A stretch of DNA of 64,000 nucleotides from a virus (IMGVR_UViG_2061766007_002263); one strand, 5' to 3'. Numbered from the stretch's first letter, positions 719 through 44,898 are shown. Translations and numbers: made by a program. Notes: generated by a model not told the origin, from the letters alone.

Positions 719-768
719 AGAATGTCACTCTTTCCTTATGTCGTAATTATTATAGTGATGTAACAAAT

Positions 769-939
769 CTATCCTTTAAAAAACTTGTCAAGGGAAGGCA
801 GTCCGTAAACTTCCAGAAAATACAGTATCCAGAAGCAAACGTCAAAAATGACGCAACCAAAGATTGCCTTGTAAAATCTCTTGTCTTGCTTGAACGTGCC
901 GATAAAGAACAGAATCGGTGCAGCCGTTAAAAGAAGCAT
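769..939 (-). CDS. small membrane protein (56 aa, below ORF-track cutoff)
   Basis: MLLLTAAPILFFIG...DKFFKG*; RBS present; stop lies inside motif 750. Confidence 0.65.
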   Translation of the reverse strand: MLLLTAAPILFFIGTFKQDKRFYKAIFGCVIFDVCFWILYFLEVYGLPSLDKFFKG

Positions 940-959
940 AAAACTACCTTCCCTTTTTC

Positions 960-1142
960 TTAAAAGAACAACTCACGAAGTTTCTTGTTGCAACTGATAA
1001 CAATGATTCCACCAAGCATTGCGATAAGAAAACCCAATGCAAACGGTGAGCCTTCAAAAAACTTGTTAAACGAGTATACATGATTCTCATACTGTCCACA
1101 AGCGAACAACCAATCAAAACCTTTTTCCATAGCTTCCAACAT
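960..1142 (-). CDS. small membrane protein
   Basis: hydrophobic segment; motif 1181 upstream. Confidence 0.7.
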   Translation of the reverse strand: MLEAMEKGFDWLFACGQYENHVYSFNKFFEGSPFALGFLIAMLGGIIVISCNKKLRELFF

Positions 1143-1303
1143 AATTTTTAACCCCCTAATTATCGTTGATGTCTTATTTATTATAATCTTAATTGATACT
1201 TATCCCGACAAAAAAAGGAACAAGCACGGCATAGGAAAGGGGGATTTCCTAATAAAAAAGCCGTGAACTTGCCCCAAAAAATTTTCCGTTGATTAAGGGT
1301 TTT

Positions 1304-1531
1304 TCAGATAGCCGTTTCAAGGCTATGGATTTCTTTTAGCAAATCCGAACAAATGCAACCCATATCCTTTAAGTCGCTTTTTGCAGAGTTCACATTGTCT
1401 GTTGAATAAATGTTCTTGGCAAAATGACTATAAAACTTGTCAAGATGTCCCATCAAGTTTGCAATGTAATTCAAATGGGTACTTGAAGAAGGATTTTCAC
1501 GAATCATTGTCTGAACTGTCTTCATTTTCAT
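1304..1531 (-). CDS. hypothetical protein
   Basis: ATGA overlap with upstream gene. Confidence 0.7.
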   Translation of the reverse strand: MKMKTVQTMIRENPSSSTHLNYIANLMGHLDKFYSHFAKNIYSTDNVNSAKSDLKDMGCICSDLLKEIHSLETAI

Positions 1532-1893
1532 AGTTCTCCGTTGTATGTGAACTTTTTGCCTACATTAAAGCGAAGCATTGAACTAATCCCTCTACGCATA
1601 AGACTTTCATAGTTTTCTGCTTTCTCAATGTATTTCATAGGAATCTTTACAGTAGCAATACCTTTACATTCCCAATCACCATTCGTGTAGCCAACGGAAA
1701 CAAAATAACCACAATCACTTGAAACTTGTTTCATCCCTTTTTTCCAAACTTCAAATTTAAGTGTGTTTCCTTTTCGTGAAAGATACTTGAATTTGTATGA
1801 AGGACTGTGCCAATCCCAAGAATCCCAAATCCAACCTTTATCGCTAAAAGCGACTACGTCTCTATTCCTTGAATTGATTATTCTGATATCCAT
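1528..1893 (-). CDS. hypothetical protein
   Basis: RBS AAGGGGG; motif 1924. Confidence 0.75.
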   Translation of the reverse strand: MDIRIINSRNRDVVAFSDKGWIWDSWDWHSPSYKFKYLSRKGNTLKFEVWKKGMKQVSSDCGYFVSVGYTNGDWECKGIATVKIPMKYIEKAENYESLMRRGISSMLRFNVGKKFTYNGEL

Positions 1894-1931
1894 AGTGTAC
1901 TATCCCCCTTGATACTATGTTTATTATAATC

Positions 1932-2165
1932 TTAGCGATTACTTATCCTGACGGCATCTTCGATTGTCATAATTCTTGCCATATCACGATAATAAGGCAA
2001 CTTTGACAAAGTGAACATAGCACCAAAACGAGTCTTGAACTTTTGTGCATAATTCAAATCAGAAATACATTCAACACCCAGTTTGTCTATTTTCTCCAAG
2101 AACATAGCACGATGAGAGCCATTCTGCATTTTTGTTTTACCTACATAGATAACATACCTTTCCAT
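1932..2165 (-). CDS. hypothetical protein
   Basis: RBS GGAG. Confidence 0.7.
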   Translation of the reverse strand: MERYVIYVGKTKMQNGSHRAMFLEKIDKLGVECISDLNYAQKFKTRFGAMFTLSKLPYYRDMARIMTIEDAVRISNR

Positions 2166-2207
2166 AGTATCTCCGTTATAGATTAAAAAGGGTAATTGCT
2201 CGCTCTA

Positions 2208-2441
2208 TTATAGTTTCTTCATGAGTACACGACCAACGGCAAGTTTAATGTCGTTATCGTTCCAAGTACCATTTTCTTTGAAAGCCGAAGTTTCTGCGAC
2301 ATTTGCAACTACCTCATCAAGAATAGCACGGCGAATGTCATAAACATAATCGTCCGAGATTGCCGACTTCAAGTTTCTTTCCAAGAAGTAGTAAACACCG
2401 TCTTTAAGCCTTTCATAGTCTGTTTTACTGTCGGGCCACAT
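2208..2441 (-). CDS. hypothetical protein
   Basis: RBS AGGAG; motif 2467. Confidence 0.75.
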   Translation of the reverse strand: MWPDSKTDYERLKDGVYYFLERNLKSAISDDYVYDIRRAILDEVVANVAETSAFKENGTWNDNDIKLAVGRVLMKKL

Positions 2442-2504
2442 AGTTTGTTCTCCTATACGATTATTATTATAATGTTATGAGACATTTATCCTTCGAAGTT
2501 TTAA

Positions 2505-2822
2505 AAAAGAAAAGGGGCGAACAACCGTGTGTTTCGCCCCTTGTATTATATTATCTATCTCATTATATATTCTACCTTATAATTAAAGTGCTATGGATAG
2601 TGCATAAACGTTCCTCTTAATCGGTCGGTTACAGAACCCATAATCACTACCAACTATTTCGTCTGCAACCTTAAAAATCAAACGCTGCTGAATTATAACA
2701 AACTATAGTATCATAAGTTGCTATGTCATAAGCCGACCTTCCACCTTTGGTGGTTTTATAAACTTATTTATGATTGACGAGTTGTGAACGCTTTTAGCGT
2801 CTGTTTCACAACATCCTACGCT
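2505..2822 (-). ncRNA. candidate structured non-coding RNA (~300 nt)
   Basis: Lies between motif 2830 and terminator 2512-2542. No convincing ORF. Hairpins at 2781-2812 and 2741-2753; long-range pair 2623-2628/2733-2738. Confidence 0.45.
2512..2542 (-). terminator. intrinsic terminator
   Basis: AAGGGGCGAA...TTCGCCCCTT stem followed by a U-tract on the minus strand. Confidence 0.75.
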
Positions 2823-2862
2823 TTACTTATTATAACCTTTTGGGATGTCTATCCCGCAAAGT

Positions 2863-3039
2863 TTAGAATTCAATTTTCAAGAGTTCTTCACGAATTTTAG
2901 CCAATTCCTTGCCGACAGTTTCGACATAAAAATTGTTTACTTCACCAACCTTTGCTCCGTCCTTCAACGACTTTTCAATAGCGTCTACGGCATTGCCAAT
3001 GTTGCGCTCAAGATACGCTAATGCTCTTGCTTTCATCAT
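2863..3039 (-). CDS. hypothetical protein (58 aa)
   Basis: MMKARALAYLERN...; RBS AAGGAG; motif 3067. Confidence 0.7.
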   Translation of the reverse strand: MMKARALAYLERNIGNAVDAIEKSLKDGAKVGEVNNFYVETVGKELAKIREELLKIEF

Positions 3040-3299
3040 TGTGTATTGCTCCTTATGTCCTATTTATTATAATCTTTGTAGGTATCTATCCTGGAAACTG
3101 CAAACTAATCTTGCCCCTTATATATACATAAATAACGGTTGATAGATTCTGACTTTTTAGGTTGGAGTTAGTTTACATATAATAATAAAAGATTAAAAAA
3201 ACTTGAAAAAAAATTCCAATAAAAAAGGCATAAAAAAAAGGGCAAATGGTCTAGGGGGATAAAATGACCACTTGCCCTCGTGATAATCAAGAAAAAGAT

Positions 3300-3494
3300 T
3301 TACTGTTTTTTAATCCAGTCCACGATGTCATCCGTGGTGTCTTTTACTACTTCACCAGCTTCCTCGGCATGGTCTCCGAAGTTACTGACAAACTCTTTAG
3401 CGTCTTTTTTAAACGCTTTGAAATCAAAGTTGCCGTACTTATAAACGACAAAAATACCTAAAGCCAATAAAGCAATTAAAATCAGTTTCTTCAT
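3300..3494 (-). CDS. small membrane-anchored protein
   Basis: N-terminal hydrophobic helix; motif 3524. Confidence 0.7.
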   Translation of the reverse strand: MKKLILIALLALGIFVVYKYGNFDFKAFKKDAKEFVSNFGDHAEEAGEVVKDTTDDIVDWIKKQ

Positions 3495-3542
3495 GGTATG
3501 TGTTTTCCTTTACACAAATCTTATTATAGCGTTTTTACGCCG

Positions 3543-3770
3543 CTATCCTTTAAGTTCAAGGATTTCTGTTGGTTTATAGTAGAACTGCGAAACATAAGGG
3601 AATGGCTCATCGTAATCATCGTCATCGTCAGAGCAGTACGCTTCTGTCTGTGACTCTTCTGTTCTGCGCTTGCAATACGCTTTTATCTTGTCCTCTGAAC
3701 AAATAGCCGTACCAATAAGCCATGAATGACCGTCTGATTTCTCGTATACCGCCCAAGCAGATTTTTTCAT
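3543..3770 (-). CDS. hypothetical protein
   Basis: start moved to MKKSAW (GGAG RBS); ends Gly-stop in motif 3524. Confidence 0.7.
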   Translation of the reverse strand: MKKSAWAVYEKSDGHSWLIGTAICSEDKIKAYCKRRTEESQTEAYCSDDDDDYDEPFPYVSQFYYKPTEILELKG

Positions 3771-3772
3771 GG

Positions 3773-3898
3773 TTATCTCCAAAGAAGCGTTTCTGGATAC
3801 TGAATTATAACGTCTGCCGTATGCGCAACGGCTTCTTCCATGTCGTATACACCGTTCGCAAGCATCTCTCTAATCACACTGATTTTGTCATAAGACAT
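3773..3898 (-). CDS. hypothetical protein (41 aa)
   Basis: MSYDKISVIREML...; GGGGG RBS; motif 3942. Confidence 0.55.
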   Translation of the reverse strand: MSYDKISVIREMLANGVYDMEEAVAHTADVIIQYPETLLWR

Positions 3899-4096
3899 TT
3901 GATTTCCCCCATTGGTCTGTTTATTTTCGGCAACCATTATTTTATAGTGTTGTGTTTATATTATCCTTTCAAAAAATATGAACTTTCGGCTATAAGGATA
4001 ATTTTAGCATATAAATATAAATATCTATAAAAGTTTTTTAAAGTTATAAAAACTTGTGAAAAAAATAAAAATTACGTCCCAAAAAAATCTTAAAAA

Positions 4097-4984
4097 TTAC
4101 ACGTTTTTCAAACCGCTCAACAAATATTCTATTACTTTTACAGTCCACCCGTTACCTACACCGTAAATACGTTTTGTGTCTGATTTAAGCACTTTCGTAT
4201 AGTTATCCGGCAATGTCTGCAATCGTTCCGCTTCAATTGGATGTATGTATCTGTAAGATGTTCCGCCCAACCAAAAGTTCACTTTATCCCGGCCGTTTGC
4301 CGATACTGTATTGGTTTTTCCCGCAATCCTTGCACGATTCTGCTGAGAATAATATCCCTTTCCGGAGCTGTCCCATTTAACTACACAACCGTCCACCGAA
4401 ATGCGCATTGTATCTTTATATTTCTCAAAAGACTTGACTTTATAATTATTATCATATACAATGTCTTGTATAGTGTCCGTACATGGAGCGGGACGCTTTC
4501 CTAACGGTATGTTAGTCCAGTAGTATCTATGTCTGACCTGAGCTGAGAAATCCGCCGAGTTTATCTCGACAGGTTCATGTCCAAAAGATTTTGTTATCTC
4601 CGCTTTTATCTCGTCCGACATACTTGCGTTGTTCTCGTACAAATAGTATTTTGGTTTAGCTTCCTTTAATGCACGTATATACTGACTGAACAAATCCCAA
4701 CCAATGCCGCTTGAAGTAGTTTCTCTGCCTTTACCACCACGACTGATAGACCATAGGGTACACGGACTGCCCCCGATAAGCAAATCATATTCGCCCTCAT
4801 GGTATTCCGCTTTGAATACATCACCTTTATGCGCTATGTCTTTCCAATTATCTTCCGATACCTTTATCGCGTTCTCATCTATCTCGTATGCATCATACTT
4901 CTCGACTTTAATTCCCAATCTGTCCAGTGCCACACGACCACAGCTTATGCCGTCAAATAATGATAATACCCTTACTTTTTCCAT
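4097..4984 (-). CDS. DNA (cytosine-5)-methyltransferase
   Basis: motif I LSLFDGISCG, catalytic GGSPC, motif VI ENN, motif VIII QVRHRYYW, motif X GNGW. Confidence 0.92.
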   Translation of the reverse strand: MEKVRVLSLFDGISCGRVALDRLGIKVEKYDAYEIDENAIKVSEDNWKDIAHKGDVFKAEYHEGEYDLLIGGSPCTLWSISRGGKGRETTSSGIGWDLFSQYIRALKEAKPKYYLYENNASMSDEIKAEITKSFGHEPVEINSADFSAQVRHRYYWTNIPLGKRPAPCTDTIQDIVYDNNYKVKSFEKYKDTMRISVDGCVVKWDSSGKGYYSQQNRARIAGKTNTVSANGRDKVNFWLGGTSYRYIHPIEAERLQTLPDNYTKVLKSDTKRIYGVGNGWTVKVIEYLLSGLKNV

Positions 4985-5069
4985 TTCAATTATGTCCTTT
5001 AGAATATAGAAACATATTAAAAAAAGCATGAGAAAACATTTCCCATGCTTTTCTGATTAGCTTTCTTTT

Positions 5070-5186
5070 TCAAATGCTTACGTAATCAGCTTTGCAGCCT
5101 TTATGCGTAAAAGCATACTTCTTAGCGTCTGTTTCTGACAGACATACTTTCACGGTTTTTCCAGTGCCGTCAGTTACGACCCACAT
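5070..5186 (-). CDS. hypothetical protein (38 aa)
   Basis: MWVVTDGTGKTVKVC...; GGGGAG RBS; motif 5213. Confidence 0.6.
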   Translation of the reverse strand: MWVVTDGTGKTVKVCLSETDAKKYAFTHKGCKADYVSI

Positions 5187-5317
5187 TTGTTTCTCCCCTG
5201 GGATAAACTGAATTATAATCTTGTGAAAAGTTTATCCCCCTAAGTCTTTCAATCAAAGACTTAAAATAACGTCAAGCGATTTTGTCAGTTATTTAGTGAG
5301 AATATTAAACTACTTTT

Positions 5318-6504: not shown

Positions 6505-6517
6505 TTTGCATTTCCCC

Positions 6518-6703: not shown

Positions 6704-6843
6704 TTAATTTCCCTCACAATAATTTTATTATACTATTGATAATTAGTTATCTTTTTTAATACTGTTACGTTCATTGTTTAAGTTTCTTACGCATATAAAA
6801 TTATAACCTTGTTCAAGTGTTATCCTGAACAAGGCTCAATTTT

Positions 6844-13140: not shown

Positions 13141-13812
13141 TTATAACCTTACGAAATGCCTATCCTGCAATAAAAGTAAAAGCCTTGCCAACTGACTGAC
13201 AAGGCTTATTTTGATTACAGTTTTTCTTCGATGTAACGCTTTGCGATAGAACGCAGTAAATCATCGTCAAGATTGTCAAATACCCAATCTTCGTTAATGT
13301 CGGCTTTTTTTACAAATCCGTTATCATATACCCAATCAATAGCCGCGCTTTTAAACGCAGATGAACTTTTGCTATATTTAATAGCATCAATGATACCTTC
13401 GCAAGAATCTTCGCTTACTTCGTCATAATTGATAAGGTTGATTGCACGGTCAATGACTGTTGCGTTTTCTGCCATTGCGTATTCGTTTTCGTCACCGATT
13501 TCAAATCCACTCTGCTTTGCAACCTTAATGATTTCATTGAAAGTTCCTTGTGTAATTCCGTTGTTGTGTGCGCCCATCTGCAAGTAGTCAATAACCATAG
13601 CAACTGAATTGTCGATAGTCGGTTTATTTGCGTTTACGCGTTTTTTGACAATCTGCTCGATAGAACTTGAAAGTTCTAACAAAATTTCTGACGTTTCCGT
13701 TGACGTTTCCATTGTTTAATCTCCTTATGCCAAATAAATTATAATCTTACGAAATGTCTATCCCGCAAAAGTAAAAGCCTTGCCAACTGACTGACAAGGC
13801 TTATCTCGATTA
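13141..13812. repeat. ~75-bp direct repeat (motif plus terminator) at 13141-13218 and 13739-13813
   Basis: shared TTATAAYCTTACGAAATGYCTATCC...AAGTAAAAGCCTTGCCAACTGACTGACAAGGCTTAT flanking gene 13215..13712. Confidence 0.85.
13215..13712 (-). CDS. hypothetical protein
   Basis: RBS; motif 13739. Confidence 0.8.
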   Translation of the reverse strand: METSTETSEILLELSSSIEQIVKKRVNANKPTIDNSVAMVIDYLQMGAHNNGITQGTFNEIIKVAKQSGFEIGDENEYAMAENATVIDRAINLINYDEVSEDSCEGIIDAIKYSKSSSAFKSAAIDWVYDNGFVKKADINEDWVFDNLDDDLLRSIAKRYIEEKL

Positions 13813-14386: not shown

Positions 14387-14452
14387 TGTATCTTTGCCGT
14401 CCTATACCAAAATTATAACCTTGTAGGACATTTATCCTACAAGGTTTTAACA

Positions 14453-15067
14453 TTATTCCGCAGCCATACCGATTACATAGTATCTGTGGATTTCACGAAC
14501 CACTGAACCACTTTTTACAGTCTTTGGCTTAGACTTTGAGTTCTTTACGACAAGGGTAAACTTTGCCTTATCTTCTGAACCACTGACAAGAACTTTTGTC
14601 TTTTCCCACCAAGCGTCATTTCCACTGTCAATAGTGTACTTTTTTGCTTTATTGTCGGCAAGTGTCTGTGTGCTTTCAACGCCAAGTTCCTTCTTACGCA
14701 TATCATTATCGTATCCATAGATAACAAAGCGTGTCTGATAAGTCGGCTTTTTGACATTTGTAGCCTTTACCTTTTTTACAGACCAAGTTTCGTAGCCAAC
14801 TACACCCAAGTCGAAAACTTCGCTAGACCTTTTGCTCATAGCATCGAATCTGTCATTGACCATTTTCTGATACTTTTTCTGTGTACGGAAATTTTTGTAG
14901 TTTGATTCTGTGCATTTGTCAAAGACTTTGTGTGTCTTGTAAATACTTGCACAAGTATTCCAATCGCCACTATAAATGTCGTCACTGTGCGACCAAGAAC
15001 GGATTTCCGAAGAAGTCATAAACTCCTTAGCCAAGTTTACACATTTACTGATACCACAAGCACCCAT
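14453..15067 (-). CDS. hypothetical protein, paralogue of 36074..36688
   Basis: shared DIYSGDWNTC and VVREIHxYYVIG.AAE. Confidence 0.85.
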   Translation of the reverse strand: MGACGISKCVNLAKEFMTSSEIRSWSHSDDIYSGDWNTCASIYKTHKVFDKCTESNYKNFRTQKKYQKMVNDRFDAMSKRSSEVFDLGVVGYETWSVKKVKATNVKKPTYQTRFVIYGYDNDMRKKELGVESTQTLADNKAKKYTIDSGNDAWWEKTKVLVSGSEDKAKFTLVVKNSKSKPKTVKSGSVVREIHRYYVIGMAAE

Positions 15068-15157
15068 AGTTTTATCTCCTTATGTTTTAATTATTATAAC
15101 CTTGTTGGTTCTTTATCCTGAAAAAATAAAAAGGGGTGAATAACCACCCCTTGTGTT

Positions 15158-15997: not shown

Positions 15998-16092
15998 TGT
16001 TCTTTTCTCCCTACCTTTAAAAAATTATAACCTTGCAAGATTCTTATCCTGCAAGGTTATTTTTATGTTTGTTTAGCCATTGTTTATCAATC

Positions 16093-17109: not shown

Positions 17110-17177
17110 TGTTGTTATCTCCTTACTTTTAAAAAATTATAACCTTGCAGATTTTCTATCCTGCAAGGTCATTTGGT

Positions 17178-18038: not shown

Positions 18039-18083
18039 AGTCAAAATTCCTTATGCTAGGATTATTATAACCCTAGCGTATTA

Positions 18084-18578
18084 TTATCCTGCATAAGATT
18101 CATCAAGGTCTTCAAGTTTTTCTGCAAGTTCGTCATAGTTCAATGTGAAGAAAGAAAATTCTCCGTCACTGTCGCTATTTTCAAAACTTGATACACCAAG
18201 TTCGTTATTGATAAACCTTACAAGTTTATCAACCAAGTAGTCTTGCATTTCTTTGTCTACATTTTTATCCGTATTGACCATGTTTTCAGTAGGAAACATA
18301 ATGCAAGCGTTGTCAAGTAATTTTGTTCCATCTACAAGAACAAAATCGGCATGACCTTCTTCGCTTGAAGTAGCATTGCAAACACCGATAAACAAATGTT
18401 CGTCAATGTCAATTCTGCGTGGAAGTTCCTTAGACCAAAAATGCTTTGCAAGAACACCGTTAAGTTTGTCCAAAACATTTTCGACCGACAAAACATCATA
18501 CATACGATAAAGTGTTTTTTTGTTTTTGTCACTGTCTTGCAGACATTCGTGTTCCAAAAATCTTTCTTTAGCGTTCAT
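18084..18578 (-). CDS. hypothetical protein, paralogue of 19129..19599
   Basis: shared EHECLQDxDKNKKTLYRMYD and FFTLNYDELAEKL. Confidence 0.85.
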   Translation of the reverse strand: MNAKERFLEHECLQDSDKNKKTLYRMYDVLSVENVLDKLNGVLAKHFWSKELPRRIDIDEHLFIGVCNATSSEEGHADFVLVDGTKLLDNACIMFPTENMVNTDKNVDKEMQDYLVDKLVRFINNELGVSSFENSDSDGEFSFFTLNYDELAEKLEDLDESYAG

Positions 18579-19075: not shown

Positions 19076-19128
19076 AGCGTTCAGGCCCCCTTTTTCAACA
19101 GTCTTTCAATTATAACCCTAGCGTATTT

Positions 19129-19599
19129 TTATCCTGCGTGATTCGTCAAAGTTGCCAATTTTTCTGCAAGTTCATCATAGTTCAATGTGAAGAAAGCTAA
19201 ACCTGTGTATTTACTAGACAGAACGAAGCTCTTTACACCGAGTTCATTATTAACAAATTTTACAAGTTCACCAACCAGATAAATTTGCAGTTTCTCTGAA
19301 ATGTCTTGTTCTTTATCAGAACAATTCTCACAATGAAATAGAAGGCAAGCATTGTCAAGCAAGTTCGTTCCGTCTACAAGAACATAGTCAGCGTCATTAT
19401 TGTTACAACAAGCTATTGCAAAGTTATTCCTTTCAAAGTTTATTCTTTTAGGCAGTTCCTTTTTCCAGAACCGTTCCGCGAGATAGTCATTCAGCTTGCC
19501 CAAAAGGATTTCAACTGTACTGGCATCATACATACGGTAAAGTGTCTTTTTGTTTTTATCACCGTCTTGCAGACATTCATGTTCCATAAACTTTTCCAT
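19129..19599 (-). CDS. hypothetical protein, paralogue of 18084..18578
   Basis: see paralogue; motif 19627. Confidence 0.85.
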   Translation of the reverse strand: MEKFMEHECLQDGDKNKKTLYRMYDASTVEILLGKLNDYLAERFWKKELPKRINFERNNFAIACCNNNDADYVLVDGTNLLDNACLLFHCENCSDKEQDISEKLQIYLVGELVKFVNNELGVKSFVLSSKYTGLAFFTLNYDELAEKLATLTNHAG

Positions 19600-20575: not shown

Positions 20576-21262
20576 TTATTTCTTATTTGACGCAAAAACG
20601 TCTCGGAAATCTGATTCTGTAAACAAGTGGTCTGCTTTCAATTCGTGGTTTGTAGCAAAGTCAACACCGTCAGTAGAAAAACTGTGGTTCAGTGCCGAAG
20701 GTTTCTTCGGATTAACTGTTGAAGTAGAATATAAATCGTCTTTTGTAGACGGTCTGGTATTATTGAAGATGTCGTCTTTTTCGCCCTTGTAGTTATCATT
20801 CGTAACTTCACCATAGCCCGTACCGGGTCTGTGAACATGAACTGACCACTGTGTAAAATCACCTACAAGTTTCTTTCCGAAATCATAAAGCTCGTCAAAG
20901 TCTACTTCCTCAACTTCACCGTCTTTAATCTTCATGGGGAACACCATAAATGATTTTTCGCTCTCACCCTCAAATACGCCCCAAACTTTCTTGAAACTGA
21001 AACCGCTTTTTTCAAGTTCCTTTTTAAGTTCGTTTGTGCGTTGTCCGTTGTCCAAGCCTTTTCCGTCACCATGAATAACATCCGACGAATTGATGTACTG
21101 GTCCGTAAGATAATGAACAGGCTCACCGTTTTCGTCAACGATTGTATTACCACTACCATCTTCCAGTGTTTCTGTAGTAGAAATACTAGCAGAAATAATA
21201 ATGTAGCCTATTTTATCCCATCTGTCAAGGTCTTTTTTAATGTTTTCTGTAAGTCTAATCAT
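20576..21262 (-). CDS. putative SAM-lyase-like (DUF3293-related) protein
   Basis: GYIIISA...NxxRxxELxxxLxxxG...GVF..E.EKSFMV...FTQWSV pattern recalled from phage SAM lyases; not searched. Confidence 0.45.
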   Translation of the reverse strand: MIRLTENIKKDLDRWDKIGYIIISASISTTETLEDGSGNTIVDENGEPVHYLTDQYINSSDVIHGDGKGLDNGQRTNELKKELEKSGFSFKKVWGVFEGESEKSFMVFPMKIKDGEVEEVDFDELYDFGKKLVGDFTQWSVHVHRPGTGYGEVTNDNYKGEKDDIFNNTRPSTKDDLYSTSTVNPKKPSALNHSFSTDGVDFATNHELKADHLFTESDFRDVFASNKK

Positions 21263-21276
21263 AAATAATTAGTTGA

Positions 21277-21374
21277 AGAAAAAAAATCCACACAAAAAAT
21301 GTGTGGATTTTTTGGAGACTCGCTACAACGATATGTAGATTTTATTGTTGCGGTGTTCCCTACACTGGACTTTG
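21277..21374 (-). ncRNA. candidate ~95-nt sRNA or attenuated leader
   Basis: motif 21381 followed by ORF-less sequence with an imperfect stem and terminator 21281-21313. Confidence 0.35.
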
Positions 21375-21399
21375 ATTTTATTATAGTCTTTGTTAAATG

Positions 21400-21741
21400 T
21401 TATCCTTGATTATGGTTTTTAATTCTATTCTCTCGCCATTTCCTAAAAGTCATAGGTTCTGGCTCTGATTCGGTTTTCAGCTCATCCAAAAGAACTACTG
21501 TTATGTTCTTTTCAAAAGACGGAATATCCTTAACGTCCAACTTCCCAAGAATCTCCACCATTTCATTATTCAAGACCTTAAAGTTTTTTTCGTAATTCTC
21601 GCGGCTCTCATAATCCTTTACGAAAGAATAACTGCGTTTCATTACGAAAAATGAACATTTTTTAAGTTTACCTACATGGAGACCTTCAAACTCCAAACTT
21701 TTGCCATTACATAAGGTAAAGTTTTCCGCTACTCTAAACAT
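21400..21741 (-). CDS. hypothetical protein
   Basis: RBS GAGGAG; Gly-stop inside motif 21381. Confidence 0.75.
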   Translation of the reverse strand: MFRVAENFTLCNGKSLEFEGLHVGKLKKCSFFVMKRSYSFVKDYESRENYEKNFKVLNNEMVEILGKLDVKDIPSFEKNITVVLLDELKTESEPEPMTFRKWRENRIKNHNQG

Positions 21742-21834: not shown

Positions 21835-23318
21835 TGAAACTTCGTAAGATTCCACCTTTTAAGGTGGACATTTAGAAGTCTCTATAATCTTTTTAGTTCA
21901 AGCATACTAATTATTTATATATTAACATAGCATTAAGCATAGCAAGTTTATGTTAGAGTTCTTTAGTTTCAACTAAATAATTACATAAAAAATGAAAACT
22001 TTAGAAGAAAGACAGAAAATTAAAAATTCTCTAATTGAAACTCGTGAAAGACGGAAAAATCAGTCTATTAAAGTTATTGAGTTGAAGGTGAATTGTCACC
22101 AAACTTCTAAAGAAACTTTCAAAAAAATGAATTTTGTATTTACACAAGCAAAATGGATTGTAAATGAAATGATTCGTTTAGGTGAAACTCAAAATTTTTT
22201 TGATTATAATTATCTTGAACATAAAGAAGTAATTCATTTAGACAAAGACGGCAATGAAATTAAATCTAAAATTGAATTACCGTCTATTTTGCATAGAGGT
22301 ATTGTTAATCAGAAAAAACAAGATGTTGTGAATGAATCTAAAGCTAAGAAAAAAGGAAGAAAAGTTGGAAAACTAAAATATAAGTCTGAAATCAACTCAA
22401 TAAACATTCTTACTGGACCTTGGCTTAAAATCCGTGATAATTCTCATATCACAATCCCTGGATTTGTAAATTTAAAAGTCTATGGTTTAAACCAACTCAA
22501 AAAATATAAAGAATATGAACTGGCAAATGCGAAATTCATAAGAAAGCCGAGTGGGTTTTATATTCATGTTTCAGTTTGTGTACCAAAAATAAATAGTGTT
22601 CCAAAAAAGAACCACAAAGAAGTTGGTCTTGATTTTGGAATTAAAGATAATATCATAACTTCTGATGGAGAAAAGTTTAATTGTAAAGTGCCAGAAAGTG
22701 ACTACTTGAAGTTTCTTCAAAAACAATCGAAAAGAAAACAGAAAGGGTCAAAGCATTATTACAAATTACGGAATCAAATTCAGAAAGAATATGAGCATTT
22801 ATCTAATAAAAAATCCGACGAAGCTAATAAGCTGATTTCTTATTTTTTGAAAAACTATGACATTATTTATTTCCAGGACAAAAGCATTTCAGAATGGAAA
22901 AAGAAAAAAAGAAGTAAGAAAACCGGCAAAAAAGTAAATTGTTTTTCTTTTGGAAAACAAGTTCAGTCTTCTTATTTAGGAAGAGTAAAGGCAAAATTAG
23001 TTTCGTTAGAAAACGAGAAGTCTTTTAAAATTTCTAAATGGATTCCAACTACAAAGTTTTGTCCGAATTGTGGATGCTTGAATAAGATTGGATTAGAAGA
23101 AAGGACTTATCGTTGTGACTGTGGATATTTTTTTGACAGGGATATTCACGCAGCAAAAAATGTAAAATTGTTTGGCTCGACAAAAAGAGCTGAGTGCTTG
23201 GAACAAGCCTCCGTGGAGACATTAGCCTCTGCTTTATCAGAACTATATTCTGATACAGTAAGCTAAGTCGTAGAAGCGAAAATTGAAGCTTCCAGCCTTT
23301 AGGCTGGCAGTAGTTCAC
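21835..23318 (+). mobile_element. IS200/IS605-family (IS1341-like, tnpB-only) element; left boundary approximate
   Basis: left hairpin TCCACCTTTTAAGGTGGA; right end GAAGCTTCCAGCCTTTAGGCTGGCAGTAGTTCAC; no tnpA. Confidence 0.8.
21992..23266 (+). CDS. tnpB: TnpB RNA-guided nuclease family protein
   Basis: RuvC-I GLDFGIK, zinc finger CPNCG/CDCG, RuvC-III DRDIHAAKN; RuvC-II reads YFQD. Confidence 0.92.
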   Translation: MKTLEERQKIKNSLIETRERRKNQSIKVIELKVNCHQTSKETFKKMNFVFTQAKWIVNEMIRLGETQNFFDYNYLEHKEVIHLDKDGNEIKSKIELPSILHRGIVNQKKQDVVNESKAKKKGRKVGKLKYKSEINSINILTGPWLKIRDNSHITIPGFVNLKVYGLNQLKKYKEYELANAKFIRKPSGFYIHVSVCVPKINSVPKKNHKEVGLDFGIKDNIITSDGEKFNCKVPESDYLKFLQKQSKRKQKGSKHYYKLRNQIQKEYEHLSNKKSDEANKLISYFLKNYDIIYFQDKSISEWKKKKRSKKTGKKVNCFSFGKQVQSSYLGRVKAKLVSLENEKSFKISKWIPTTKFCPNCGCLNKIGLEERTYRCDCGYFFDRDIHAAKNVKLFGSTKRAECLEQASVETLASALSELYSDTVS

Positions 23319-29519: not shown

Positions 29520-30437
29520 TTATCCTTTAGGAAATATACCGTCAGTAGTCAGTCCATTAGGCAATTTGCCATATAGTGCCAATGCAAGCCGCATGGCTTC
29601 CGTTGAGATTTCTTCCATGCCGTAAAAGTCTGCTATAGTCCTTGCCACACGTATAATTGAATTCTTCGTAGGTACATAAAACTCATTCTCATACTGGCTT
29701 CTGGCAAGCAAACCAGTCGCACTTATGCTCATCCGACAGAACTCTTTCTGTTCCGTTACGGAAAGCTGGCTGTTGAGTTTACCCTGCCGTTTGTACTGTG
29801 TTTCATAAGCCTTGGCTATTTTATCACGCAGATACGAAAACGTCCAGTTTGCGTCCGGCTCTAGCTCCCATAAATCCTTGGCTGCCGTAAAATACTGTTT
29901 GTCATTATAAAAGTCAATGCGTATAGCTATTCTGTCAAGCCAATATCTGCTGAACTTCGCCCAAAATGTTTTGGTTTTTTTATAGAAGCGTTTACAAGTC
30001 TTGTTACATCTTCCATTACAACAACTTGTATCTATTACTAGCTGAAAATTGTTTTCAGATAAGTCTTTCAGTTTATAAAATGTTTTTTTCGAGAAGTCCT
30101 CACCGTTCTCAAAATAAAGTATGCCTTTGTCCGCTAGAACTACTTCCCGTTCAAGCCGTTTCTTTTCTGTATAGAACCTGAATGGTCTTGCAAAACTGTC
30201 CGACATTTCTTCGCCAACATCAATATAAGTCTGTTTTACTTCTTCTATTTCGTTTTTAAGCAGTTTAGGCTGAAGATATCGCATGAGCCTTGCAATTTTA
30301 GGTCTGTTTGGATTCCCGAAAACAAGAAAATTATGCCGACCCGCCACAGCTACAGCCACAGCGAATTTCACTACTTCCCGACCGGCTAAATCATCAAATC
30401 CTTCATAAATACCGTTATCGAAATCAGATTTTTCCAT
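29520..30437 (-). CDS. degenerate ComM/YifB-like (Mg-chelatase family) AAA+ protein
   Basis: AVAGRHN, RPFR, LDRIAIR, QYKRQGKLN, RVARTIAD retained; Walker A and B lost. Confidence 0.75.
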   Translation of the reverse strand: MEKSDFDNGIYEGFDDLAGREVVKFAVAVAVAGRHNFLVFGNPNRPKIARLMRYLQPKLLKNEIEEVKQTYIDVGEEMSDSFARPFRFYTEKKRLEREVVLADKGILYFENGEDFSKKTFYKLKDLSENNFQLVIDTSCCNGRCNKTCKRFYKKTKTFWAKFSRYWLDRIAIRIDFYNDKQYFTAAKDLWELEPDANWTFSYLRDKIAKAYETQYKRQGKLNSQLSVTEQKEFCRMSISATGLLARSQYENEFYVPTKNSIIRVARTIADFYGMEEISTEAMRLALALYGKLPNGLTTDGIFPKG

Positions 30438-30534
30438 TAGCGTTTTATTATAGTCATGGATTATATCCATCCTTCAAAAATAAAAAACCGACCCAACAAA
30501 AAGTCGAATCGGTTGTGAAATTATTTCAAGCAAA

Positions 30535-34622: not shown

Positions 34623-34686
34623 AGGTATCTCCTTTTCAATAAAAAAATTATAACCTTGCAAGATTTCTATCCTGCAAGGTTATTTC

Positions 34687-34955: not shown

Positions 34956-34969
34956 AGCGATTCTTCCTT

Positions 34970-39153: not shown

Positions 39154-40116
39154 TTAATTGTAGTAATCAAAAGTTTCACCACAAAGCTGAAGCGCGGTGG
39201 ACACATGGCTTTCAGTAATCCCGTTGCTCTCATGCATATCCGCGATTGTTCTCGCAACTTTTATGATTCCACGTTTTACAAGAGCGGAAATACCTTTTAT
39301 TTCACAATAGCTTTCGAGCATGGTTGTTTCGCTCTTTCCCATAGGACAATAGGTTGACACCTCATCCGGCGTAAGGTCAGCGTTCAGTTTGCCCTGCCGC
39401 TTATACTGGAACTCCTGTCCTTTTTTAATCAGCTCACGCAGCTCTTCCAGTGTCCGTTCAGGCTCAAATGTCGTATGCGTCTCATAGAGCATTACACGTA
39501 TCTCCATACGGTCAAGAAGCGGTCCGCTGAACTTCTTCCAATACTGTTCTATTGAACGTGCTGAGCAAATACAAATACGGTCAGAGCCATAATTTCCACA
39601 TGGGCAAGGACTTGTAACCATAGCCAATTGAAAATCGGCTGGATACACATAACATTTACCCGCACGGCTCAACGTAACTGATTTTGTTTCCAGAGGAACA
39701 CGAAGCATTTGAAGAACAGACGTTCTGAATTCCGCCACTTCGTCAAGAAAAAGCATACCTTTATGCGCAAGGCTTATCTCACCCGGTTTGCAGTCGATGC
39801 CACCGCCGCACATACCTTCCAGAGAAGCAGTTTGATGCGGCATACGGAAAGGACGTGGTGTTTTCAAGTCGTCAGGACGTGGTATCCCCGCTACTTCGTA
39901 GATTTTATTGACTTCTTTCATCTCGTCTGCCGTAAGTTCCGGCATGAGCATAGGAAACATCGTAAACATCGCGGTCTTACCACAGCCAGGACTTCCTACG
40001 GCTATAATGTTGTGCCGACCACATACGGCTACAGCCATAGCATACTTCAGAAAATCAATGTTTTTTCCCTTAAAGGAATCAAACTTCTTATCATCAGCTT
40101 TCTCGAACTCAACCAT
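39154..40116 (-). CDS. ComM/YifB-like AAA+ ATPase lacking the N-terminal domain
   Basis: Walker A GSPGCGKT, RPFRMPHQTAS, PGEISLAHKGMLFLDE, PCPCG, SGPLLDR, KVARTIAD. Confidence 0.9.
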   Translation of the reverse strand: MVEFEKADDKKFDSFKGKNIDFLKYAMAVAVCGRHNIIAVGSPGCGKTAMFTMFPMLMPELTADEMKEVNKIYEVAGIPRPDDLKTPRPFRMPHQTASLEGMCGGGIDCKPGEISLAHKGMLFLDEVAEFRTSVLQMLRVPLETKSVTLSRAGKCYVYPADFQLAMVTSPCPCGNYGSDRICICSARSIEQYWKKFSGPLLDRMEIRVMLYETHTTFEPERTLEELRELIKKGQEFQYKRQGKLNADLTPDEVSTYCPMGKSETTMLESYCEIKGISALVKRGIIKVARTIADMHESNGITESHVSTALQLCGETFDYYN

Positions 40117-40221: not shown

Positions 40222-40851
40222 TCAATCGTATAATTCGCTCATCTTGTATAAAGATTCAACCGAATTATTTGGGTCAAGAATCTTGCGTATCTTGGCAAGG
40301 TCTTTTTCTGGAATAGCACGGTACAACCATGAATGTCCGTATTGGTATGGCTTTCCGTTCACTTCGACCTCATACATTCCGTATGTTTTCAGAACTATGC
40401 AGTCAAGCGTATAGCCATGTATATCTCGTAAGCAATTTTCAATCCATTTCTTATAGTAATTGTCAGAATATCCGTACTCAATCCGCGCTTTTTCCCAAAG
40501 TGCTTTGGCATATTCATTGGCGATTGTTTCTCTTTCGTCCTCATGCTCTTTAAGGCACTTTTCCTGTTCCGGAGTACCTGCGTTCATGTCGTTAAGGTGG
40601 TACTTCTCCCACAAATCCTCAATCAAGTTATACAACTTATTATGCTTAAAATATGGCTTGACAGTATCCAAACACTGTCCGCCAGCATGGATATCAGTAT
40701 GTTTGGAATTCCAAACTTTACCAGATACAGTAAAAGCTGGTTTATCAGTGTCCGCGTTTTTCAGCGCAACCTCCAGATTCACGACATTAATCTTACGCCC
40801 TGTTTTATGGTAATCAATTTTTCCAAAATCAAGTGTTCTATACAAATCCAT
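40222..40851 (-). CDS. hypothetical phage protein
   Basis: GGQCLD, WEKYHLNDM; motif 40875. Confidence 0.82.
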   Translation of the reverse strand: MDLYRTLDFGKIDYHKTGRKINVVNLEVALKNADTDKPAFTVSGKVWNSKHTDIHAGGQCLDTVKPYFKHNKLYNLIEDLWEKYHLNDMNAGTPEQEKCLKEHEDERETIANEYAKALWEKARIEYGYSDNYYKKWIENCLRDIHGYTLDCIVLKTYGMYEVEVNGKPYQYGHSWLYRAIPEKDLAKIRKILDPNNSVESLYKMSELYD

Positions 40852-40918
40852 AATTAAAACCTCTTTTACAAGAATTATAATCTTGCGAGTAATTTATCCT
40901 GTAACAGTTTGTTTTTAG

Positions 40919-42311
40919 GAGACTTTCACGTTCTAAACCTTTGGGGCTTTAGCCTCTAAGATACAGAACGTGTAATATATTTTAGGAACTTTACTATAAT
41001 TTTCCTAAAAGAAAATATTCCTTTTTCCACTAATTAGAGTATGAGTAAGAACGAAAATATCCAAAAAGGATTATTAGAATTAAAAGCAAGAAGAAAGACT
41101 CAGCAAATCAAAGTCTATGAATTGAAGATAAATGTACATTCAACCTCAAAGGAGGATTTTGCAAAATTCAATTCTATGTTCGTTCAAGCAAAATGGGTTG
41201 CAAATGATTGTATTGCTTCTGAGGATATTTTCACTTACAAATATCAAGAACATAAAAAGGTTATCAATTTTGACAAAGATGGAAACAAAGTAGAAAGAAC
41301 AATCAATTTGAATTCCGGTATACACCAAGACATTATTCGTCAAATTAAACAGGACATTGTGAACCTTTCAAAGAAGAAAAAGAAAGGTGGAAAAGTAGGA
41401 AGGCTAAAATTCAAAAGACAAGTAAATACTATCAATTTGAGAGATTTGAAAGTATTGAATTCGAAAACAGTTTCAATCCCAGGCTTCAAAAACTTAAAAG
41501 TGTACGGACTTGAACAATTCATCAGTATTCCTGAATTTGAAATTGCAAGTCCAAAATTGGTAAAAAAAGCTTCAGGAATATACCTAAAAGTTCCTGTATG
41601 TATTCCAAAAGAAACTTCCAAAAGAAAATCCACAAACAAAGAGGTTGGGTTGGATTTTGGAATCAAGGATAACATAACTACATCTGATGGAGAGAAATTC
41701 AACTGTAGTGTGCAAGAATCTGAGTATCTAAAATTTCTACAACGTAAGTTGCACAAGAAACAAAAGAACTCAAAGCGATACCATAAATGTTTGAATCAAC
41801 TCCAAAAAGAGTATGAACATCTCACTAACAAAAAGAATGACGATTCTAACAAATTAATTTCCTACCTTTTGAAGAGCTATGATGTCATCTATTTTCAGGA
41901 CGAGCAAATTTCAAAATGGAGAAAGTTCAACAAAGGATTTGCTAGAAACATCCAACATTCCTATTTGGGAAGAGTGAAAGCAAAGCTTGTGGAGTTACAA
42001 AAGACAAGTAGAAGTTTTGAAATTTCAAAATGGTCTCCCTCTACAAAATTCTGTCCTCAATGTGGTTCTCTAAATGATGGAATCACACTTTCAGACAGAA
42101 TTTTCAAATGTTCATGTGGATATCAATTTGATAGAGATGTTCATGCAGCAAAAAACGTAAAATTGTTTGGCTCAACTAAAAGGGCTGAGTGGTTGGAACA
42201 ACCCCCCGTGGACTCATTGGTCACTACTGCACTAGAATTTTCTGGGACAGCAAATCAAGAGGTTGAAGCGAAAAACGAAGCTGTAGTGTCTTCAGACATT
42301 CGGTAGTTCAC
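40919..42311 (+). mobile_element. IS200/IS605-family tnpB-only element; left boundary approximate
   Basis: left nested hairpin CACGTTCT...GGGGCTTTAGCCTC...AGAACGTG; right end GAAGC...GTGTCTTCAGACAT..GTAGTTCAC. Confidence 0.78.
41041..42306 (+). CDS. tnpB: TnpB RNA-guided nuclease family protein
   Basis: GLDFGIK, CPQCG/CSCG, DRDVHAAKN; RuvC-II YFQDE; closely related to 21992..23266. Confidence 0.92.
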   Translation: MSKNENIQKGLLELKARRKTQQIKVYELKINVHSTSKEDFAKFNSMFVQAKWVANDCIASEDIFTYKYQEHKKVINFDKDGNKVERTINLNSGIHQDIIRQIKQDIVNLSKKKKKGGKVGRLKFKRQVNTINLRDLKVLNSKTVSIPGFKNLKVYGLEQFISIPEFEIASPKLVKKASGIYLKVPVCIPKETSKRKSTNKEVGLDFGIKDNITTSDGEKFNCSVQESEYLKFLQRKLHKKQKNSKRYHKCLNQLQKEYEHLTNKKNDDSNKLISYLLKSYDVIYFQDEQISKWRKFNKGFARNIQHSYLGRVKAKLVELQKTSRSFEISKWSPSTKFCPQCGSLNDGITLSDRIFKCSCGYQFDRDVHAAKNVKLFGSTKRAEWLEQPPVDSLVTTALEFSGTANQEVEAKNEAVVSSDIR

Positions 42312-42841
42312 CGTCCGTAAACCTTTTTAGCATAATGCAGATTCACACTGTATCCTTTGCTCAAAAGCTTCTCGTGCAAAGTCTGTGGGTCGTCATATTT
42401 ATGATTGTTATAATACGCTTCGCCACGTTTCGTGAGTTTTTTCACCTCGAAACAGTTTACTCCGTCATGATGATACGAATGTATGTTGAATACGCCTTTG
42501 TCGTCAAATATTTTAGTCTTATAGCAAAAACAGACGTTAAGACCATTAAAGCCTTTGAATACCCGACCCCCATAATGCCTTCCGTCCCAGTTTCCTATAA
42601 AACCAGTAATAATATACGTGCTGCCGTCATCAAAGAAATTCTTAAGCAGAGACGATTCCGAATCCCAAGATGTTTCATTGGAAATACGAATTTCCTCTTG
42701 AATTTCCTCGTCAGTCGGTTCCCAATCGGTTTCCTCTGGATATTCTTCAAGATGTCGCTCGATACAATACTTCTCCGCGTCATCCCAATCATAACCGTCA
42801 TGGTCATTATAAATTATTGTTTCCGTTTTTTTCTTTCCCAT
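42308..42841 (-). CDS. hypothetical phage protein
   Basis: GNWDGR, HHDG; stop codon supplied by the IS right end. Confidence 0.8.
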   Translation of the reverse strand: MGKKKTETIIYNDHDGYDWDDAEKYCIERHLEEYPEETDWEPTDEEIQEEIRISNETSWDSESSLLKNFFDDGSTYIITGFIGNWDGRHYGGRVFKGFNGLNVCFCYKTKIFDDKGVFNIHSYHHDGVNCFEVKKLTKRGEAYYNNHKYDDPQTLHEKLLSKGYSVNLHYAKKVYGR

Positions 42842-42942
42842 AGAAATTCCTTTTGAATGTATCTTAAGTATTATAACCTTTCAAATCGTTTATCCTTAGA
42901 AAAACAAAAAGGGCGGAATCAACCGCCCCTTTTCAAGTATTG

Positions 42943-43416
42943 TTAAAACTCCTCTGGATTTATAAATTCAATTTCTGTCGTACCAGACTTTACCTTACCG
43001 AAAAGGTCACCAAAATAGAAAATACCAATTTCACCCGGCTCTATTTCTACTTTAGTACCTTTTTCATTGGAGCAGACGTCTCCCACTGTCGCAAAAATCG
43101 GCTCGTCAGAAGCATTCTTAACATAAAGGTAATCACTGAACCAATTTCCAAAATAGTCTTCCATAAAATTAAGATTCTTTTTTGGAAACAAATCTATAGG
43201 TTCCGAATCGTCAAAATACTGAAAGTTTTCTTTATCAAACTCTCTTACTTCTTTTTTCAAATCGTCAGCCGTTTCGATTCTGGCAAGACGCTCCACAACT
43301 TCCTGACCATAACCTATTACGTCATTACCAACTCTGACGTACATATCACCGTTGAACTCATTAGAAGTTAGAATCTTCCGTTCTTTAGTAACTAATACAA
43401 ACTTACCTCTTGTCAT
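42943..43416 (-). CDS. hypothetical protein
   Basis: RBS; motif 43444. Confidence 0.8.
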   Translation of the reverse strand: MTRGKFVLVTKERKILTSNEFNGDMYVRVGNDVIGYGQEVVERLARIETADDLKKEVREFDKENFQYFDDSEPIDLFPKKNLNFMEDYFGNWFSDYLYVKNASDEPIFATVGDVCSNEKGTKVEIEPGEIGIFYFGDLFGKVKSGTTEIEFINPEEF

Positions 43417-43462
43417 AGCATTAATCTCCTTTCGCTTTTTCTATTATAATGTTGAAGTGGTT

Positions 43463-43747
43463 CTATCCTTCCAAAGAATCTTGCACTTCCAATTCAACCC
43501 GCGCAAACGGAAGATTCGTTTTCAAATCCCAGAACTCATAATAATCTGGAAATGCGGAACAATCTACGTCAATGTCTCCAAGAAGTTCTTTTTTAAGGAA
43601 TCCTTTGTCAGCGCAAGCGTTCAGAATGTCGTTAGCAGAAGCGTCCTCACTTACTTCTATAGGATTGCCGGTAAACTTGCCGACATTGTTCACTTCAAAA
43701 TCATCCTCATTTCCCCAAACGTCATAGACACAAAAAATGTATTTCAC
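43463..43747 (-). CDS. hypothetical protein
   Basis: GTG start, AAGGAG RBS; motif 43773; Gly-stop inside motif 43444. Confidence 0.75.
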   Translation of the reverse strand: MKYIFCVYDVWGNEDDFEVNNVGKFTGNPIEVSEDASANDILNACADKGFLKKELLGDIDVDCSAFPDYYEFWDLKTNLPFARVELEVQDSLEG

Positions 43748-44009
43748 GAACTAATCTCCTTTAGAGTTTTTATTATAGTGTTAAGAACATTCTATCCTTC
43801 GAAAATTGAACATGGCTCTAAAAAGGGTTTTTATAGTAAGGTGGCAAGAAAAATGCCACATCTTTAGTGTGGCGTATGAATTGCTACATCTAATAGTTAT
43901 GAAGCCCCGAAAAAAAAAATCCATTAAATTGCCAGAAAAAAAACGCATTAAAACCTTAGAAAAAAATCTTAAAGGATAACTCAAAAAAATCAGTATAATA
44001 TACTTTTAC

Positions 44010-44417
44010 ATGAATGAAACATTAGAGAAAAGCATTTCCAAAGTATCAAGAAGATTTTGTGAAATCTTCTATTGCAAAGAAAAAGAGCCGCCCGTAATGG
44101 AAGACGGATTCGTTACCTTATCATTTGTACCAGTCAACGACATTACAGACGCTACCATTAAATTACAAATATGTAAAAAAGGTGATTTTTACTTGCGCTT
44201 AGATTGTGGAACTCATTCCTACATGGCGTTTGCTGGTTGGACGGATGATTCGGACAACGATGAGACTATCCAAAAAATGGTTGCAGGAATTTTTGATTTT
44301 TTCTATAATTATACTACAGATGAAAACATCATAGGGCTGGTTCAATGGATAAAATGCACTGGTGCCTCGCCAAGTCTGATTTCTGCGATAAAAAAACTTT
44401 TAGAAAACATTTTTTAA
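44010..44417 (+). CDS. hypothetical protein
   Basis: plus-oriented motif at 43974. Confidence 0.75.
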   Translation: MNETLEKSISKVSRRFCEIFYCKEKEPPVMEDGFVTLSFVPVNDITDATIKLQICKKGDFYLRLDCGTHSYMAFAGWTDDSDNDETIQKMVAGIFDFFYNYTTDENIIGLVQWIKCTGASPSLISAIKKLLENIF

Positions 44418-44472
44418 TTGAAATATTTAATATCTCCATAGATTTTAAAATACTTGAAGGAGAAAATAATTT

Positions 44473-44898
44473 ATGAGTAAAAAAACTGATTATCTTACTG
44501 CGGACGAAGCAATCGGATTTCTTTCGTTGCTGAATAATTCAGCAGTTCAGAATTACATTAAAGAGCATGTCGAACTCGGAAATGTAAAAGATACTTTGGA
44601 AATAATCCCATGCAAAGAAAGCGATGCGATTCCTGAGACATACGCGGCACAAGGTGAGACGAACTCATGCATTATGTATGATTCTTCATCCTCCGACTAT
44701 ACAGTGGATGATGCCGAGAAAGCAATAGACGAGCTGTTGAAATATCTCAAGAAAGTTAAAGCACCAGTAAAGCTTACATCGCACGAGGATAACTTCTACT
44801 TCCTTGAGACGAATTATACCAAGATTCTGGACTGGGAATCGACATACACAAAAAGCTCCGAAAAAAAAACTAAGGATAACGTAGAAAAAACACTATAG
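44473..44898 (+). CDS. hypothetical protein
   Basis: AAGGAG RBS. Confidence 0.75.
   Translation: MSKKTDYLTADEAIGFLSLLNNSAVQNYIKEHVELGNVKDTLEIIPCKESDAIPETYAAQGETNSCIMYDSSSSDYTVDDAEKAIDELLKYLKKVKAPVKLTSHEDNFYFLETNYTKILDWESTYTKSSEKKTKDNVEKTL

Follow-up and report, generated by a model that had tools for sequence, protein, structure and literature searches.

What kind of element can recur before gene after gene over 44 kb of a viral genome with a spacing that never changes, and which protein reads it? The question is raised by IMGVR_UViG_2061766007_002263, a 64,000-nt stretch of DNA (the window in what follows) from an uncultured phage that, judging from its relatives, is a jumbo phage of roughly 240 kb and that apparently comes from the ruminant gut. 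An earlier note on this DNA had described a recurrent GGATA-N15-TATAAT element with an invariant spacer, heading self-contained expression units. The analysis presented here makes it probable that this element is the standard early-class promoter of the phage, built as a compact module with an upstream box whose reader is not of the host type and, in some copies, with a terminator fused into it.

The window contains the exact motif GGATA-N15-TATAAT 60 times, whereas dinucleotide-preserving shuffles lead one to expect 0.05 copies. The minus strand holds 59 of these copies (749–43797) and the plus strand one (43974). The spacer is always 15 nt long, and spacers of 12–14 or 16–18 nt give no match at all, which confirms both the recurrence and the fixed geometry. 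A stricter pattern, AGGATAR-N9-A-N4-TATAAT, still has 45 matches in the window, with 0.01 expected from shuffles. A further ten copies deviate by one mismatch, and seven of these precede genes; on the minus strand they include two with the box variant AGATA (6257, 6752), three with AATAAT at the −10 position (10470, 11230, 39112) and one with TATAAA (3966). The late/structural region, 45–64 kb, contains no copy, and none is found beyond 44.9 kb, as the earlier note had held. The two changes of orientation that it had placed at 43974 and 44874 are also real. The sole exact plus-strand promoter (43974–43999) diverges from the minus-strand promoter at 43772–43797, and the copy at 44874–44899 (plus strand) is a TATAGT variant, situated 30 nt before the ATG of gene 44930–45991 and the last before the late/structural region. 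The 353-aa product of that gene gave an uninformative ESM Atlas lookup.

Conservation extends beyond the two invariant blocks. If TATAAT is taken as −12 to −7, GGATA occupies −32 to −28, and AGGATA about −33 to −28. In a logo of the 60 sites, the box is directly preceded by A (46/60) or G and followed by R at logo position +5 (59/60). The spacer carries A at +15 in 58/60 sites, continuing as A-G-R-Y; a T-rich segment stands at −7 to −4 of the logo, and a conserved leader, cATAAGGAGAtaaaac, precedes the ATG.

The genes behind these sites form an early-type array on the minus strand (1–44899), which continues past the left edge of the window. A simple gene call made for this analysis, covering the minus strand of 1–44 kb, gives 91 genes with a median length of 97 aa. 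The 65 minus-strand promoters in front of them are of a single class, have a median spacing of 559 bp and head units of one (37), two (20) or three genes (3). All motif copies are oriented with their downstream gene. At 52 of 60 scored sites, TATAAT ends 19–29 nt 5′ of the start codon, with a Shine–Dalgarno (SD) sequence of the AAGGAGA type between the two. The description of the array as a series of self-contained expression units can be upheld: each has a promoter, an SD sequence, a start codon and often a terminator, and the genes that follow are small ORFans from a region of the phage early type. Nearly all array proteins are without a family match. The exceptions are a C5 cytosine DNA methylase (4097–5029, minus strand), two ComM/Mg-chelatase-like AAA+ ATPases (39154–40116, minus strand, and its paralog at 29520–30470, with 31% identity), and an SSB. 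Judging from its ORFan status, the remainder may contain genes for host takeover or anti-defence.

A second property of the modules concerns termination. About half of the promoters carry a terminator, and terminator-like sites in 6–20.5 kb are about three times as frequent as in shuffles (26 vs 8.7 ± 3.1). Folding the flanks of each promoter separates three contexts, here called types A, B and C. In type A (about 14 promoters), a classic hairpin with a T-run ends a few bases 5′ of the box. An example lies at 15093–15152 (minus strand), where the hairpin and T-run (15131–15152) are followed by AGGATA-N15-TATAAT (15093–15118), the SD sequence and an ATG at 15067. In type B (12–18 promoters), the hairpin encloses the GGATA box itself: a 5′ arm (e.g. 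ACCTTGCA) pairs with the conserved end of the spacer, TGCAAGGT, and often also with the TAT of the −10 hexamer, after which AATTTTTT follows. In type C (eight promoters), gene and promoter adjoin without any gap: the gene upstream, ending in Gly-stop, terminates on the TAA or TAG of GGATAR (774, 3548, 18089, 19134, 21405, 26616, 29525 and 43468, all on the minus strand). Although R follows the box in 59/60 sites, only these eight use it in a stop codon. The earlier statement that a terminator stands before the element therefore holds for the 14 or so hairpins with a T-run that lie upstream, and needs correction for the 12–18 that enclose the box and for the eight promoters without any gap.

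The terminator scan itself lists four of the box-enclosing (type B) hairpins as terminators. Stems of at least 8 bp are found at 12 sites, against 5.3 ± 1.9 after random re-pairing of flanks and spacers, and T content after TATAAT is higher at these sites (3.2 vs 1.8 of 6). At 16018–16060 (minus strand, as are all the following composites), GGATA is located in the loop, and the 3′ arm consists of the TGCAAGGT spacer end and the TAT of the −10 hexamer, with AATTTTTT behind it. The composite at 17130–17172 belongs to a 72-nt module that is 85% identical to the module at 16049, and the one at 34641–34685 has an exact stretch of 24 nt in common with that same module, 18.6 kb away. Compensatory variants of the stem occur at 14437, 16644 and 6825; they include the composites 14407–14446, with arms ACCTTGTA / TACAAGGT, and 6795–6836, with a shifted 11-bp stem formed by CCTTGTTCA / TGAACAAGG. 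The AAGRY segment is also kept in promoters that have no hairpin, so the 3′ arm appears to be constrained by promoter function, with the 5′ arm adapted to it. One 28-nt terminator hairpin, AAGCCTTGTCAGTCAGTTGGCAAGGCTT, recurs unchanged 595 nt away, in front of the neighbouring promoter (13180–13207 and 13775–13802, minus strand), which suggests local duplication or conversion of a terminator–promoter module.

Taken together as a working model, a module would consist of an optional terminator hairpin, AGGATAR (about −33 to −27), a 15-nt spacer ending in A-A-G-R-Y, TATAAT, a leader of about 15 nt with AAGGAGA, and the ATG. About 65 such modules would drive some 91 small, mostly ORFan genes as units of one to three genes. 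In about a quarter of the modules, initiation and termination would be fused, in that the box lies inside the hairpin that terminates the upstream gene, the 3′ arm of this hairpin being supplied by the AAGGT spacer end and the first bases of the −10 hexamer, and its U-tract by TATAAT and the T-run. Such a fused terminator would insulate each unit.

Which protein, then, might read the box? At all 59 minus-strand sites, the best match to TTGACA 16–18 nt upstream of the −10 hexamer reaches only one to three of six positions, and none of them has the canonical sigma70/sigma-A arrangement TTGACA-N16–18-TATAAT. A generic sigma70 scan of 6–20.5 kb yields 42 promoters, against 42.9 in shuffles. The earlier judgement that GGATA is not a TTGACA-type −35 is in line with both results. 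The motif was also sought in Clostridia and Bacilli, which were chosen because of the strong SD usage and the placement of the best TnpB relatives. Among 201 sampled Clostridia genomes, the maximum is about 18 copies per genome, close to a reversed-pattern control; 151 sampled Bacilli genomes contain the strict pattern eight times in total, below the control, compared with 45 times in this 44 kb. Enrichment for the motif is seen in none of these 352 genomes. This result and the missing −35 together argue that the upstream reader is not standard host −35 recognition.

The architecture of the element is itself informative. Two conserved blocks joined by a spacer that is fixed in length and variable in sequence are the signature of a two-domain, sigma-type reader; a promoter for a single-subunit polymerase would be conserved throughout. 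Since the element has two invariant blocks and a spacer of exactly this kind, we infer that it is a promoter, and a two-part one of the sigma type. The perfect TATAAT would be contacted by a region 2 like that of a primary sigma. The box might be read by region 4 of the host sigma-A after remodelling by a phage protein, in the manner of T4 MotA/AsiA, or by a phage sigma, which would have to enter together with the DNA or be synthesised very early. That a phage-supplied factor of some kind reads the box is, in our estimate, an evenly balanced proposition.

The timing of the class can be approached from the other end of the window. The late region lacks the GGATA motif, and its genes instead carry the word ACTAAWTA a few bases before their start codons. 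This word is also enriched upstream of genes in G001, a relative with 59% capsid identity, in which CTAATT is the most enriched hexamer upstream of genes and no comparable two-part motif is present. With a late region that lacks the motif and carries a word common to both phages, the GGATA class would be an early or pre-late one. The earlier note had proposed a motif scan of the genome and its relatives; the motif is strongly enriched in the window, and it is absent from IMG/VR relatives with 47–59% capsid identity.

Several points weigh against an early-class promoter with a reader of non-host type. Among the roughly 100 proteins of the window, which is part of the genome, Pfam and PHROG searches found no gene for a sigma factor, MotA, AsiA or RNA polymerase; the phage sigma, activator or recombinase for which the earlier note had suggested looking did not turn up in this partial genome. 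The Pfam family Sigma70_r2 has no match in four distant relatives either. A phage factor acting on immediate-early genes would need to be injected. The class could be a ‘middle’ rather than an ‘early’ one, and the phage may have a host whose own sigma-A prefers an AGGATA box. As regards the fused terminators, overall pairing between upstream flanks and spacers (covariation) is not above the shuffle control, the excess being limited to the longest stems. Box-enclosing hairpins hence characterise only some of the modules and are in part a by-product of the consensus.

An alternative is that an ordinary host primary sigma reads the promoters unaided, with the −10 hexamer and the A-A-G-R-Y segment doing most of the work and AGGATA acting as a phage-optimised or host-specific substitute for the −35. 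This is quite possible, though not what we would expect. The early promoters of well-studied phages are generally known to use the host holoenzyme, a perfect TATAAT is the −10 of a primary sigma, and the window encodes no recognisable phage transcription factor. Moreover, a relative that differs in GC content (30%) lacks the GGATA class yet has the late-type word, as would be the case for early promoters adapted to a host, and the promoters of the PeSL cassettes discussed below are sigma70-like (PMC4122927). What this alternative leaves unexplained is the want of a −35 at 59/59 minus-strand sites, a spacing of 15 nt and not 17 ± 1, and the invariance of a box of 5–6 nt, which implies a specific reader; the absence of enrichment in all 352 sampled Clostridia and Bacilli genomes also stands against it.

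The short, asymmetric and invariant box between −33 and −28 might also be mainly an operator, at which a phage regulator turns the class off (early shut-off) or on, with the polymerase relying on the −10 region only. One small protein of the window does match a PHROG annotated as ‘transcriptional regulator’. The rigid 15-nt phasing and the single orientation suggest contact with the polymerase, not simple occlusion, and render this proposal distinctly improbable. Promoters that function with a −10 element only normally require a TG extension, and there is none here, positions −15/−14 being G-R. Scarcely credible is the notion that the repeats are no promoters at all, and instead represent a mobile or selfish element of the MITE type (miniature inverted-repeat transposable element) or attC-like recombination sites. 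The copies are indeed many, and a subset has hairpins; these are confined, however, to about one quarter of the copies, the orientation and the distance to SD and ATG are constant, target-site duplications and terminal inverted repeats are absent, no integrase was found, and the conserved part is a textbook −10 hexamer.

A promoter module may have a second use, and the earlier note's suggestion of cassette shuffling deserves separate consideration. The modules would then also be sites at which crossovers are favoured and cassettes are gained, lost and shuffled, by short-repeat recombination of the PeSL type, perhaps through circles, making the array an integrase-free library. This seems rather unlikely at present, although a number of observations speak for it. 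The array contains about 65 direct repeats of 60–72 nt that are 60–85% identical and make up about 10% of its length, and the most similar modules link the blocks at 14–17 kb and 32–35 kb, with unrelated genes between them. All 11 paralogous protein pairs are dispersed single genes with unrelated neighbours. Alignment at the DNA level is possible for two of these pairs only. The units 18084/19129 are homologous through the gene and an overlapping downstream promoter: the type C promoter at 18064–18089 (minus strand) overlaps the end of gene 18084–18578, the TAA of its GGATAA being the stop codon, and matches its twin at 19109–19134 (minus strand) in 25/26 positions, the homology of the paralogous units ending right after TATAAT. 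In the units 14453/36074, homology is bounded by promoters on both sides. The boundaries of these two duplicated pairs fit the junction idea weakly. Similarity between modules is slightly higher for neighbours than for distant ones (0.438 vs 0.408, permutation p ~0.001). For phages RB49/phi1, crossovers at such modules and mini-circles have been shown experimentally (PMC2839356).

Other properties of the array point away from a role in recombination. No two modules share an exact stretch longer than 24 nt, and 7–12 nt is typical. Boundaries at promoters are partly unavoidable, since all promoters are alike and follow one another every 559 bp. Two array genes have many relatives with 85–96% identity, for some of which the same length is given for the longest contig, and so show no sign of rapid turnover, and no recombinase or integrase family was found among the roughly 100 proteins of the window. 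The most far-reaching picture, in which a phage factor (a divergent sigma or a sigma-appropriating protein, either injected or made from a few other promoters) reads a private code of about 65 units that the host cannot use, and cassettes made portable and insulated by the terminators within their promoters are exchanged by short-homology recombination, can be offered only tentatively.

Comparison with known systems helps to separate what is familiar from what is not. In being long, running in one direction and consisting of small, mostly unknown genes with a repeated element and some hairpins, the array is reminiscent of an integron. Integron cassettes are promoterless and need the tyrosine recombinase IntI; here, each unit has its own promoter and no integrase was seen, so the array is not an integron. 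AGGA-type upstream boxes with the rigid spacing of alternative sigma factors are known from SPO1 gp28 (−35 AGGAGA) and Bacillus sigma-H (−35 AGGAWWW); the −10 elements of both are not TATAAT. No sigma gene of the SPO1 gp28 type is present in this window. Closer in layout are the T4 middle promoters, which have a MotA box at −30 and rely on sigma appropriation by AsiA/MotA. There too, a box near −30 that is not a −35 is paired with the −10 of a primary sigma across a short spacer of fixed length, and the common logic would be a replaced −35 reading. The MotA-like placement proposed in the earlier note is correct in that GGATA sits where a T4 MotA box would, and the match is one of geometry only: the MotA box is (a/t)(a/t)TGCTT(t/c)A, not AGGATA, no MotA or AsiA match was found among the roughly 100 window proteins in Pfam or PHROG, and the class here drives what is apparently the bulk of the early genes.

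The best precedent is provided by the promoter-early stem-loop (PeSL) cassettes of the T4-type phages RB49/phi1, PST/T4 and nt-1/KVP40 (Arbiol et al. 2010, PMC2839356; Comeau et al. 2014, PMC4122927), which the earlier note had rightly named. A PeSL is an intergenic composite of terminator stem-loop, early promoter, SD sequence and start codon; such modules are dense in regions of small ORFans and rare in structural ones, and each ORFan is transcriptionally insulated. The modules described here likewise have the SD sequence and start codon at their 3′ end, and they are confined to the ORFan-rich region (1–44.9 kb only) and absent from 45–64 kb. The differences lie in the promoter and in the degree of regularity. 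PeSLs have a TTGACA-like −35 at 17 nt, whereas here AGGATA stands at 15 nt, without a sigma70-type −35 and with a perfect −10. Conservation is far stricter and the contiguous array larger, with about 65 modules in 44 kb, and the stem-loop, which is upstream in PeSLs, encloses the box and overlaps the −10 in 12–18 modules. The present phage, furthermore, appears only remotely T4-like (Gp23 E-value 2.7e-5; at most 24% capsid identity to GenBank phages). In nt-1, a variant akin to T4 middle promoters is known as PmSL (PMC4122927). The layout is thus a known kind of phage early-gene architecture, PeSL-like in function and arrangement, and a literature search found no published phage early promoter of the GGATA/TATAAT type.

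The position of the phage itself is best seen from its major capsid protein (62477–64000, minus strand), which marks the late/structural region. Its match to Pfam Gp23 is weak (E 2.7e-5, borderline and just under the cut-off), and the best GenBank phage capsids are 20–24% identical. IMG/VR holds capsid relatives with 39–59% identity, the longest of their contigs measuring 386 kb. Neither a megablast of 20 kb against GenBank phages nor a search of IMG/VR for an exact 44-mer produced a match, and motif scans of IMG/VR and JGI metagenome contigs returned single chance matches only and no motif-bearing relative. Proteins 85–96% identical to two array genes are found on ENA/Logan/JGI contigs of about 165–250 kb, which shows that a populous clade of close relatives exists. 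A protein of one relative (P0030, JGI) was not found in IMG/VR, and another (P0043, NCBI) was not found in GTDB genomes.

A few promoters of the array depart from the usual layout downstream of the −10 hexamer. At the plus-strand promoter 43974, the ATG (44010) lies 10 nt past TATAAT and there is no SD sequence, and at promoter 27329 an ATG follows about 10 nt past the −10; given this short distance, both mRNAs are probably leaderless. Another promoter (21276–21405, minus strand) has no open reading frame (ORF) behind it. The predicted product is a structured RNA, about 95 nt long and closed by a strong intrinsic terminator (folding z = −4.5 for the ORF-less stretch after 21405), and it is a candidate phage small RNA. 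Downstream of promoter 2854 (minus strand), about 340 nt pass before the minus strand has any ORF of at least 35 aa (2491–2854); the folding z-scores here are only about −2.4, and a non-coding RNA or a long leader is possible. Searches of the window for tRNAs and Rfam families found none.

The late-type word shows comparable peculiarities. ACTAAWTA stands 3–4 nt before an ATG, without an SD sequence, at 48034, 51730 and 21273 (minus strand), which suggests that late mRNAs led by this word are leaderless; the copy at 21273 belongs to gene 20576–21262, inside the early array. At 55180 and 59415 (minus strand), it precedes late genes and is not followed by an ATG within 37 nt. Two TnpB genes (IS605 OrfB / Cas12f-like), both on the plus strand, between cassettes and against the direction of the array, are also preceded by ACTAAWTA: the first (21992–23266) has ACTAAATA upstream at 21972, and the second (41041–42306) has ACTAATTA 4 nt before its ATG. 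Because the late-type word precedes both genes, their expression may be tied to the late programme of the phage. Over 123 nt of their 3′ parts (23120–23242 vs 42115–42237), the two genes are 80% identical. The best TnpB relatives (49–51% identity) come from two metagenome-assembled genomes (MAGs), one of Clostridia from buffalo cecum and the other of Bacilli; both MAGs lack the motif and the capsid gene, and TnpB gives a weak hint as to the host phylum. Among the late genes, a 507-aa HNH-type homing endonuclease (51733–53256, plus strand; PHROG 3339/559) lies on the opposite strand, and a fusion-like protein (59478–60584, minus strand) combines a nucleoside 2-deoxyribosyltransferase-like N-terminal part with a calcineurin-like phosphoesterase part.

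What the finding means depends largely on the reader. If the host simply reads the promoter, the array is a tidy but ordinary case of phage early-gene organisation, and an array as such is expected for a large lytic phage. The parts that merit experiment are the invariant, non-host box with its rigid spacing and the terminator-within-promoter design, a very compact form of gene insulation with possible use in synthetic biology. The array also constitutes a large and clearly bounded inventory of genes that are candidates for roles in host takeover and anti-defence. Should the reader be a phage factor, a clean assay for finding it would be at hand in the roughly 65 near-identical promoters, and a giant phage of gut anaerobes would have a new route of transcription takeover, operating from the first minute.

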